DNA from: Gammaproteobacteria bacterium | Lineage (GTDB): Bacteria; Pseudomonadota; Gammaproteobacteria; Pseudomonadales; JANQJO01 | Assembly (NCBI GenBank): GCA_031409375.1 | Contig: JANNXD010000139.1 | Coordinates: 27,944 to 91,943 of the forward strand | Direction: 5' to 3' | DNA: 64,000 nt | In this document: positions 22,535 through 23,827 of the stretch, one piece after another | Numbering within the stretch: position 1 is the stretch's first letter | How the letters are laid out: the number at the start of each line of letters is the position of its first letter | Made by a program: the position numbers and the translations under genes | Notes under the pieces: model-generated | Databases searched by the model: none | What the model was told of the DNA's origin: nothing | What the model saw: only the letters and a program-made list of their open reading frames with translations

Positions 22535-23605
22535 CTAAGCAACCCGATAAACTCTAGCCGATACTCCAATTCCTTTACCCCAGCGCTTTTGATTTCGCCC
22601 GACAAAATTGCGAATTGCAACAGGCGTTCCTACACAATGAGCATAATGGCGGCTAAAGTATTTGACATGATCGAGCCAGTGCTGAGGGTTAATTCCAAGC
22701 CGGCTAATGATAGGTATTTGGGAAGGATCAATCGCACCACGTTTATCTTCACGAATCATGCGGCCGGTTTGATCAACAAGATCAAAATAGTCTTCTTGCG
22801 AAAAGGGCAGGGCGATATGGATGTCAGTATGTGAACTACCGTCGAACGGCATTAAAGGCGCTTCAGGTAATTCATCCAGTTCAAGTTCTGATTTGAGTTT
22901 TTCTTGGTTATGTACTCGATCAATCACTTGCATTTCTGCATTTGATTTATTGCATTTATGCTTTGCAAACTCAAAAAGTCGATGCTGAATCGAAGTAAAA
23001 TCGCTATCAATTAAATCATCTGTCATACTCGCGCGCACAGGATTTAAATCAACATACGTCATGCAAGTGAGTAGGGCAGCTTCGTCTAATAATGCTTGAC
23101 TGCGAAAACGTCCTTCCCAAAATCGACCTTTGGTTTTTTCTTCTTCATTGGCCATTCGTGCGATCGTTTCATTGATTCCGCGCATAAACCAGGAAATACA
23201 ACACAAGCGTTCGCGCCAGCCTTCAATAATTTCGTCGATGACTTTCAATTCTGCATTTGTCAGCGCATCTTTGTTCTTCACCCAGCGATGAATTAGTAAG
23301 TTGCCTTGATAGAGTTGCAACCAACGTTCAACCACTTCTTCCTGAGTCCAATTTTGCGCTCGCGCTTGATCCACATGCAGCACCACGTGGTAATGATTGC
23401 TCATCACCGCATAAGCGCAGATATCAATCGCATAAATATAGGACAGAAATTTTAATCGAGAAACCAACCACTGTTTACGATGATCGTAATTCGTTCCTGA
23501 ATGCATATCTTCCCCACACAAAAATGCACGTCGCACACAGCGCACATAGCAGTGATAAAAAGAAGTCTCTTCAAGGCAAATTAAATTTTCGCGGGCTTGG
23601 GTCAT
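22535..23605 (-). mobile_element. Y1 HUH tyrosine transposase (RAYT-related, IS200/IS605 superfamily)
   Basis: YHCYVRCVRRAFLCG, AYAVMSNHYHVVL (HUH), GRFWEGRF and catalytic Tyr in YVDLNPVRA. Confidence 0.88.
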
Positions 23606-23611
23606 CGGCGC

Positions 23612-23640
23612 ACATTAATCGAGTAGGGGATGGTTGTCAA
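23612..23640 (-). promoter_or_regulatory. Putative leaderless sigma70 promoter of the transposase
   Basis: TTGACA-N17-TAATGT ending 6 nt before the ATG; no Shine-Dalgarno sequence. Confidence 0.5.
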
Positions 23641-23827
23641 GTTTGTGGATGTCCTACGTGTCGAATTACGTGTCGCTACGTGTCTCCTACGTGTCTCCTA
23701 CGTGTCGCTACGTGTCGCTACGTGAGTTTGTGGATGTCCTACGTGTCGTTGTTGCTCTACGTGTCGTTGGTTGTCAAGTTTGTGGATGTCCTACGTGTCA
23801 CTACTCTACGTGTCACTACTACGTGTC
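23631..23827. repeat. Irregular tandem array of TACGTGTC with nested longer repeats
   Basis: 11 perfect TACGTGTC copies plus one partial; GTTTGTGGATGTCCTACGTGTC x3; exact 32-bp repeat at 23631 and 23768. Confidence 0.95.

Follow-up and report, generated by a model that had tools for sequence, protein, structure and literature searches.

We examined an irregular repeat array that lies just upstream of the gene for an HUH/Y1 enzyme in a 64,000-nucleotide (nt) stretch of gammaproteobacterial DNA (positions 27,944 to 91,943, forward strand, of contig JANNXD010000139.1, assembly GCA_031409375.1; this whole stretch is called the window, and unprefixed coordinates are positions within it). The array was confirmed to be a stack of copies of the left end of the element to which the gene belongs, each truncated on its inner side. 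The gene is part of a small unit (about 1.3 kb) resembling an insertion sequence (IS), and both ends of such units consist of a lineage-specific tip of about 9–10 nt joined to a conserved core, the two ends being inverted with respect to one another. Arrays with the same fixed start and variable stop were found outside left and right ends across the family of homologous loci.

The window contains 12 occurrences of the motif GACACGTA (reverse complement of TACGTGTC), and 11 of them fall within 23655–23827, all on the minus strand; the count expected per window is 0.81, and none of 100 shuffles reached 12. GGACATCCACAAAC (reverse complement of GTTTGTGGATGTCC) was found exactly three times, at 23641, 23726 and 23778, and the exact 32-mer GACACGTAGGACATCCACAAACTTGACAACCA twice (23799–23768 and 23662–23631), the inner copy of the 32-mer ending 25 nt upstream of the ATG. 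An original prediction made from the sequence had described an array beginning 25 bp from the ATG, with 11 units, three restarts and a 32-mer present twice, and all of these counts were right. Its units stand, but the direction had to be reversed, as the opposite strand had been read: on the gene strand each copy begins at GACACGTAG and then proceeds into GGACATCC.

The copies were parsed against the complete innermost copy, which begins at 23662, reads GACACGTAG-GACATCCACAAACTTGACAACCA... on the gene strand and continues into the gene. Ten of the 11 truncated copies begin at GACACGTA(G), at the same base, and extend 8–32 nt into the adjoining GACATCCACAAACTTGACA, with exact-match prefixes of 9, 9, 32, 9, 23, 9, 11, 11, 9 and 8 nt; the eleventh lacks the first 2 nt (CACGTAG, 23724–23718). 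The prefix copies account for 137 of the 165 nt of the array, and the other 28 nt are linkers (tagt, agtagt, ac, agcaacaac, c, c, c and attc). Tandem Repeats Finder reported sub-arrays with periods of 10 and 15. The array had been called telomere-like; the unit proved to be no such template product, but the outermost 9–10 nt or so of the end followed by a variable stretch of the core.

Among the arrays parsed, the one in the window is the largest, with 10 extra anchored copies compared to at most 5 elsewhere. The scan of the genome that had been proposed for the motif gave 34 matches to GACACGTA in the whole 2.8-Mb assembly, clustered only at the window locus (11 there). Hairpins, which the prediction had said were lacking, were not found when 23606–23835 was folded as DNA: the z-scores were +1.46 and +1.51 for the two strands, neither better than shuffled sequence.

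An identical unitig for a stretch of 165–167 nt (23631/23633–23797) was present in two public sequencing runs, X1 and X2, which come from the same study, possibly from the source sample, and provide contig-level data only. Short alternative unitigs in both runs contain a third copy of a 15-mer that is found twice in the window (23791 and 23806), a hint that the length of the array is still changing. The same architecture was seen in dozens of independent assemblies, complete chromosomes among them.

Inverted ends and tip-anchored arrays in homologous loci

The comparison covered 79 homologous loci from species-representative genomes, along with further loci from relatives of the window organism. 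By anchored consensus, 68 left ends and 54 right ends among the 79 loci have a conserved core, G-GACA-N-[C/G]-CA, and most loci without the strict core have near variants of it (GGACAGGCA, GGACAGTCA, GGACACCCT). In most homologues the left core, in forward orientation, is found at about −76 to −100 relative to the ATG, whereas in the window it is at −48; the right core of the homologues, as the reverse complement, lies about 170–270 nt past the end of the protein match. The core is often preceded by (G)TAG, which is GTAG in the window. Many homologue left ends also show, on inspection and without a count, a TTGAC box that lies a few nt to the inner side of the core; it falls below the 50% consensus. 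The ends of the 79 loci are A-rich outside the core and T-rich 10–12 nt inside it, a weak symmetric arrangement of A-tract and T-tract that might reflect DNA bending or binding.

Arrays were scored as outward recurrence of the 8-mer abutting the core. Within 250 nt, one or more recurrences were seen at 30 of 67 left ends and 22 of 55 right ends, compared to 29 of 1779 control GACA sites in the same loci, and two or more at 16 of 67 left and 9 of 55 right ends, compared to 5 of the 1779 controls; more arrays were noted by eye in genomes G019, G014, G011 and G002. The loci that have arrays include some from Psychromonas, Marinomonas and Shewanella. At both ends each repeated flank unit is followed by a variable stretch of the end. 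The arrays occur equally outside right ends, where no promoter exists; a bond to the promoter of the gene or to its 5′ end, as in the prediction, was not supported.

The position of the restart was measured using the 6-mer flush with GACA as the anchor, giving 96 extra copies in 30 arrays. The outer match extended only 3–5 nt beyond the anchoring 6-mer in 61 of the 96 copies; the restart therefore lies 9–11 nt outside GACA, and it does so regardless of the unit sequence. The inner match past the anchor ran for 0–60 nt, with a single case of 143. The expectation of the prediction that homologues would share a conserved TGG(A/G)TGTCC accompanied by lineage-specific arrays is borne out by the frequency of the core and by the excess of arrays over controls, and its picture of a fixed restart with variable run-off is a good description of these start and stop positions.

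The unit sequences are lineage-specific: an element usually has one unit at its left end and another at its right, and paralogues within a genome usually have different units too. The left and right units at locus L036, for example, are GACACTCTGG and GAGACAATTAG, and differing pairs were also seen at L053, L057, L085, L025 and L055. Because the left and right units of one element differ, the repeats are not sites for one sequence-specific binder. The possibility that the units represent a target-site duplication was rejected, as an element's left unit is unrelated to its right unit when the two are compared in direct orientation.

Two loci had unusual repeats. At L122 (about 2300–2390, gene strand; G019:C282) an inverted right-end fragment comes 10 nt after the left end, and the two give a 38-nt palindrome, GGACACCCATAAAA...TTTTATGGGTGTCC, inside the left end. 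A hairpin resembling a repetitive extragenic palindromic (REP) element has thus been made from two element ends. In Zooshikella harenae (L016, about 2340–2420) the 8-nt microsatellite GTCAGTTA is present in 10 copies just past the start codon of the homologue, breaking the frame; this is a different kind of repeat from the stutter at the ends.

The complete genome G020 contains several young copies of an element of about 1.28 kb, as determined by BLAST of one locus against the genome. The full copies are homologous from 9–10 nt outside the left core to 7–14 nt (29 in one) past the right core. Six left ends at separate places have AAAGACYAA outside GGACAGGCA, and the right ends have a common A-rich 8–9-mer. 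Because the unit moves with the element in G020, the 9–10-nt unit is, judging from these alignments, best read as a tip carried by the element. A search for an empty site using the G020 locus over 21 genomes of its family found none. Partial pieces of the element in this genome number 12: four have the left tip as their start and six have the right tip as their end, and the remaining two are a diverged truncated copy and an internal piece. The tip-anchored pieces are 53–340 nt long and are dispersed at separate places, not in tandem. Tip-anchored copies truncated on the inner side thus occur at two scales, stacked at an end and dispersed.

An 8-kb hotspot in this genome (L114, G020:C1:1786000–1794000) contains a pair of full copies, and one member of the pair interrupts a third copy after codon 33. 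Core matches oriented as at a right end number 15 in the hotspot; 11 of these, judged by eye, have a right-end-like interior, and some are 34–53 nt apart.

The 2.8-Mb genome of the window gave 15, 11, 9 and 6 matches to 9-mer versions of the core, compared to 11 and 16 for reversed controls, and a REP-like genome-wide spread was rejected since the 9-mers are not enriched over these controls. Two paralogues in this genome (G000 C143:1–682 and C101:1–682; protein identity of 83% and 81%, respectively) both start precisely at residue 130, where their short contigs begin, with their 5′ halves and left ends unassembled; the assembly broke in a repeat common to the two copies, as their first 120 nt are identical to each other. 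Left-end-like sequences without a gene, GCTTAG-GACATCCATAAACTTG(A/C)C, were seen at C25:2476, about 170 nt upstream of pdxJ, and at C143:762, about 75 nt past the paralogue, in direct orientation and followed by a 17-nt tandem duplication. These solo ends could act as portable −35 boxes. An end-like GGGGCATCCACAAACGTGACAAGC in direct orientation also lies about 55 nt past the stop codon in the nearest relative with DNA, a metagenome-assembled genome of Thalassocella (L007:1150–1175; 70% identity). As the end-like sequence downstream of the gene is direct, not inverted, both there and at C143, the clade of L007 and C143 may have a different arrangement of ends.

The enzyme and its relation to described systems

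The protein of 356 amino acids (aa) contains N70-H71-Y72-H73, a W motif (RFWEG, 161–165; W163-E164 within RFWEGRF) and Y184-VDLNP (184–189), with 111 aa from H73 to Y184. In an alignment of 98 sequences N70 and H71 are conserved in at least 90%, H73 is invariant, and YVDLNP and WE are nearly so. Profile matches fell under their cut-offs: the equivalog model for REP-associated tyrosine transposases (RAYTs), NCBIfam NF047646, scored 40.6 bits (E 2.2e-10, in two stretches; cut-off 80), and Pfam PF01797 (Y1_Tnp) 16.4 bits (gathering cut-off 23). An AlphaFold2 (AF2) model built from the alignment of these 98 diverse relatives had a predicted local distance difference test (pLDDT) score of 92.8, and replaced an earlier model from 27 close sequences that was unusable (pLDDT 51). 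The helical insertion (about 80–155) and the C-terminal part (205–352) are confidently modelled and conserved.

The best structural match was the E. coli REP-associated tyrosine transposase 4ER8 (Foldseek E 5.4e-4, probability 1.00); VIA-align to 4ER8_A gave Z 12.4 with a root-mean-square deviation of 2.7 Å over 160/165 residues, and the next match had Z 6.9. After 4ER8 came the IS608, ISDra2 and IS200 transposases, and Foldseek comparison with the IS200/IS605 family gave probabilities of 0.96–0.99 for most chains, with E about 0.1. Sequence searches of PDB with both alignments returned chance matches only. The modelled fold and the NHYH and YVDLNP motifs support the earlier proposal of an HUH/Y1 enzyme related to RAYTs.

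Subclass 2.3 of the TnpA-Y1 enzymes (Quentin, Siguier, Chandler and Fichant 2018, BMC Genomics 19:475, PMC6006769) is characterized by NHYH, WE and YVDLNP motifs, a HuH-to-Y distance of about 110 aa, a conserved insertion of about 55 aa that enlarges the core, a median length of 325 aa, and a C-terminal domain specific to the subclass. The window protein is a member of this subclass, as assigned from its motifs, HuH-to-Y distance and length. The RAYT-related clade of the prediction is accordingly one already described in print. The likeness to the published description extends to several non-near-identical copies per genome, gammaproteobacterial hosts, and the absence of REP-like hairpins beside the gene. 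Neither automatic nor manual searches had found repeats for subclasses 2.1 and 2.3, and PMC6006769 left their function open; the conserved inverted ends and tip-anchored arrays seen here are absent from its description of the subclass.

The family is large and highly conserved: more than 8000 clusters at 90% identity were matched, and 1093 clusters at 50% identity with E ≤ 1e-30. Aligned relatives from named genera (Gynuella, Aurantivibrio, Marinobacterium etc.) are 60–65% identical to the window protein, and a search of 40 relatives of the window organism found no copy above 62% identity. Carriage on plasmids is rare (14 of 72,556 records, mostly large replicons).

Compared to the REPtron, i.e., a RAYT (TnpA-REP, 4ER8) gene with its REP/BIME clusters, the window element has the closest fold, a gene flanked by DNA that is presumably acted on, and GTAG beside the core; it differs in lacking palindromes, in having no genome-wide spread (15 core matches compared to 11–16 for reversed controls) and in not reaching the NF047646 cut-off. 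With the IS200/IS605 family (TnpA of IS608 and ISDra2) the HUH/Y1 fold is shared. In that family, with IS608 as the example, the cut is made at a constant spacing from the end structure that is recognised, and cutting requires the left flank. The ends described here differ in being inverted and without subterminal hairpins, the catalytic motif is Y---NP and not Y---Q, the Y1_Tnp match is under threshold, and there is no evidence of guide pairing. IS608-style pairing of the flank unit with the end interior was tried as a candidate and rejected: reverse-complementary 4–5-mers were found in 37 of 68 cases compared to a shuffled mean of 23, and this signal is one of composition (A-rich outside, T-rich inside), because the non-reversed complement was found equally often (36 of 68).

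Rolling-circle HUH transposons combine a fixed nick with variable termination, yielding copies anchored at one end, as in one-ended transposition of IS91 and in end bypass or truncation of Helitrons. Copies anchored at one end and truncated at the other are common to these elements and to ours; their enzymes, however, have other architectures and their two ends are functionally unlike, whereas the ends described here are equivalent and inverted, with many copies of just 8–30 nt stacked at the initiating end.

Inverted ends, which the homologues have on both sides of the gene and the window on the left side only, also bracket the gene in the TIRtrons, in which a RAYT-like gene (TIRYT) lies between short terminal inverted repeats (TIRs) and not REP hairpins (Di Nocera, De Gregorio and Rocco 2013, BMC Genomics 14:522, PMC3733652); that paper gives the TIR motif as GGGGWSAS and states that TIRs can form dimers or clusters. 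The core agrees with GGGGWSAS at 6 of 8 positions in most loci (GGACAC) and at 8 of 8 in some (GGGGACAG in L024 and L117), homology of the two motifs being unproven. According to PMC6006769, 20 of the 26 described TIRYTs belong to subclass 2.1 and none to 2.3; nested truncated copies with a fixed 9–11-nt start are absent from the available text of PMC3733652. Tandem reiteration of REPs together with flank segments is already in print.

A literature search found no description of a core for subclass 2.3, of tip-anchored arrays at both ends or of a 9–11-nt ruler, with figures, bioRxiv supplements, ISfinder and subscription journals outside its reach; the core 9-mers searched as text in the literature matched unrelated primers only. 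The inverted G-GACA-NN-CA ends are a candidate substrate, and the 9–11-nt restart a candidate cut site, for this widespread subclass. Were the enzyme to write the arrays by repeated nicking, as considered below, the ends would provide this HUH subclass, published as having no DNA substrate, with its first one.

How the arrays could be written

We lean, by a modest degree, toward a reading in which the enzyme nicks at the tip, a polymerase extends for a variable distance and the strand is resealed, leaving an extra truncated copy. We do so because ten copies in the window begin at the same base with exact matches of 8–32 nt, because recurrence of the arrays is specific to element ends throughout the family and has a fixed 9–11-nt restart, because the pieces in G020 show tip-anchored truncation at the larger scale of 53–340 nt, and because the protein has the RAYT fold with intact HUH and Tyr motifs. 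The fuller statement, that subclass 2.3 enzymes repeatedly nick their own tips and that each abortive cycle of nicking, extension and resealing writes one truncated copy, is put forward tentatively, at slightly below an even chance. Taken as a whole, the prediction, in which the clade would write tandem copies of its own end, was supported in part.

HUH enzymes (IS608, ISDra2, RAYT, Rep) cut single-stranded DNA at a defined spacing from the end that they recognise and become linked to the DNA through a 5′-phosphotyrosine. In the reading we lean toward, the enzyme would bind the core and nick one strand at the tip, about 9–11 nt outside GACA, and would stay covalently on the 5′ end of the element strand while a host polymerase extended the 3′-OH of the flank x nt into the element; the 5′-linked strand would then be resealed onto the extended 3′ end, adding one copy of the tip plus x nt outside the end. 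An equivalent route would be religation, at the nick, of a displaced end fragment that had terminated prematurely. Repeated cycles would build the array, and later slippage between the copies, which surely contributes as well, could expand or shrink it. The TTGACA box would be copied as well, because the left end contains it. Such a process would make copies that start at one point and stop at varying points, that lie outside the tip in direct orientation, and that can arise at either end and with any unit sequence. A nick at the junction of unit and core would instead duplicate the core without the unit, which is not what is seen. We infer the position of the nick, the role of the enzyme and the polymerase step; in the window the nick site would be the 5′ boundary of the innermost tip unit (Table 1).

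Several points weigh against this proposal. The link between the enzyme and the copies, and with it every mechanistic step, is deduced from the anatomy of the loci. The assignment of the tip to the element comes from one genome, G020, and the alternative is a preference for a 9–10-nt target. Simple extension and resealing leaves the linkers unexplained (28 of 165 nt, e.g., agcaacaac and attc), and about half of the ends are without an array (37 of 67 left, 33 of 55 right). Run-off predicts that copies shorter than the unit should arise equally often, and the anchored search sees only copies that include the final 6 nt of the unit. Contigs from a single study, possibly of the source sample, make up the read evidence. 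Lastly, A/T-richness outside the core would on its own promote slippage at these ends.

Passive replication slippage or unequal exchange, which we consider unlikely but the strongest of the alternatives, would have forks stall at the A/T-rich and perhaps protein-bound ends, with catalysis playing no part; the fixed start would be the boundary of a first chance duplication that was later propagated. The outer segments are indeed A-rich at both ends, some arrays are near-perfect, minisatellite-like tandems (L072, L084, and the periods of 10 and 15 in the window), and the alternative unitig differs by one whole 15-mer. Slippage does not account for a recurrence that is about 25-fold higher at element ends than at the 1779 control sites, however, and chance first duplications would not be expected to give the same 9–11-nt restart in unrelated lineages with unrelated units (61 of 96 copies). 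Copies within one array also stop at several points inside the end, and the tip-anchored fragments of 53–340 nt in G020 are dispersed, not tandem.

Somewhat less probable still is abortive one-ended transposition, in which fragments that start at the tip and terminate early would be released and would integrate preferentially beside an existing tip, in the manner of rolling-circle elements whose terminators are weak, the array being a set of nested insertions and not of resealing errors at one nick. Enzyme, nick site and variable stop are as in the reading that we favour, and the only difference is that the fragment leaves the site. The dispersed fragments in G020 agree with it, as do the copy inserted into another at codon 33 and the 15 cores of right-end orientation within 8 kb, the inverted right-end fragment inside the left end at L122, and the solo left-end-like sequences at C25:2476 and C143:762; many of the stacked copies, however, are just 8–11 nt long, which is short for an intermediate that is excised and re-integrated.

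The array could also be selected, as a set of binding sites (iterons or operators) through which the enzyme or a regulator tunes the promoter or the recognition of the end. Part of the window array has a spacing close to one helical turn (10–11 nt), which would suit such a role, and the array overlaps the putative promoter, with the TTGACA box duplicated. We think this improbable: the units differ between ends and between paralogues although the protein is 60–65% identical among aligned relatives from named genera, the arrays are found at right ends without a promoter, copy number, spacing and linkers are irregular, and about half of the ends have none. That the array is an assembly artefact of a short-read metagenome bin is scarcely credible, even though the source genome is a draft of 152 contigs, two paralogues are broken at contig starts and the unitig graph has an alternative path inside the array, since most of the array is identical as unitigs in two runs and the architecture recurs in dozens of independent and unrelated assemblies, complete chromosomes included; the array that the prediction described is real.

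If nicking, extension and resealing by the enzyme is true, it would represent an enzyme-driven making of short tandem arrays in bacteria, with the arrays recording the nick site, and it could multiply a portable promoter box. It would amount to a mutational process by which, at defined places, fast-changing tandem repeats are built and promoter boxes duplicated, and it would explain the frequent assembly breaks beside these genes.

Features and neighbours of the window locus

Table 1. Parts of the element in the window, with the basis on which each was assigned.
Feature	Position	Strand	Basis
HUH/Y1 enzyme gene, 356 aa, TnpA-Y1 subclass 2.3	22535..23605	minus	Open reading frame, motifs, profile matches, AF2 model, structural matches
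Inner left end up to the ATG: CAAAC, TTGACA (23640–23635), 17-nt spacer, TAATGT (23617–23612), 6 nt to the ATG	23606..23645	minus	Sequence reading
Conserved core of the end, G-GACATCCA	23646..23654	minus	Anchored family consensus
Innermost tip unit GACACGTAG, outermost 9 nt of the left end; G at 23654 common to the core	23654..23662	minus	Sequence; family restart distance of 9–11 nt; G020 comparison
Array of 11 truncated left-end copies	23663–23827	minus	Motif counts and parsing against the complete copy
Expected start of the 3′ non-coding part and right end, missing	22514..22534	.	21 nt between the stop codon and the end of the convergent gene

The window unit has a left end only: no core-like sequence was found within 660 nt past the stop codon of the gene. 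Since the right end has been lost, this copy is probably immobile, and it may be speculated that the lack of a partner makes abortive cycles more likely at the remaining left end.

The TTGACA and TAATGT hexamers form a possible promoter, going by their sequence and spacing, which would yield a near-leaderless mRNA; a consensus promoter scan made no sigma-70 call there (weak −10). The −35-like TTGACA box is duplicated along with the array copies in the window. Of the claim that the array duplicates a promoter element, the copying of the box therefore stood, and the promoter itself was not called by the scan.

The gene that converges on the HUH gene (21880–22513, plus strand) is a degenerate PDDEXK_2 gene (Rpn-like recombination-promoting nuclease), in which an in-frame stop comes after the N-terminal motif and the central part of the domain is gone; the gene ends right beside the stop codon of the HUH gene. 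Beyond it, a repetitive open reading frame of 2329 aa (13777–20766, minus strand) resembles by eye an RHS/YD-repeat protein whose C-terminal tip is divergent, an architecture like that of polymorphic toxins. On the other side, two genes past the array, is an AAA_14 / DUF4143 ATPase gene (24487–25731, plus strand; E 1.8e-46). Between the array and the ATPase gene is a 135-aa open reading frame (23988–24395) that matched no Pfam family and has a hydrophobic N-terminus resembling, by eye, a signal peptide.

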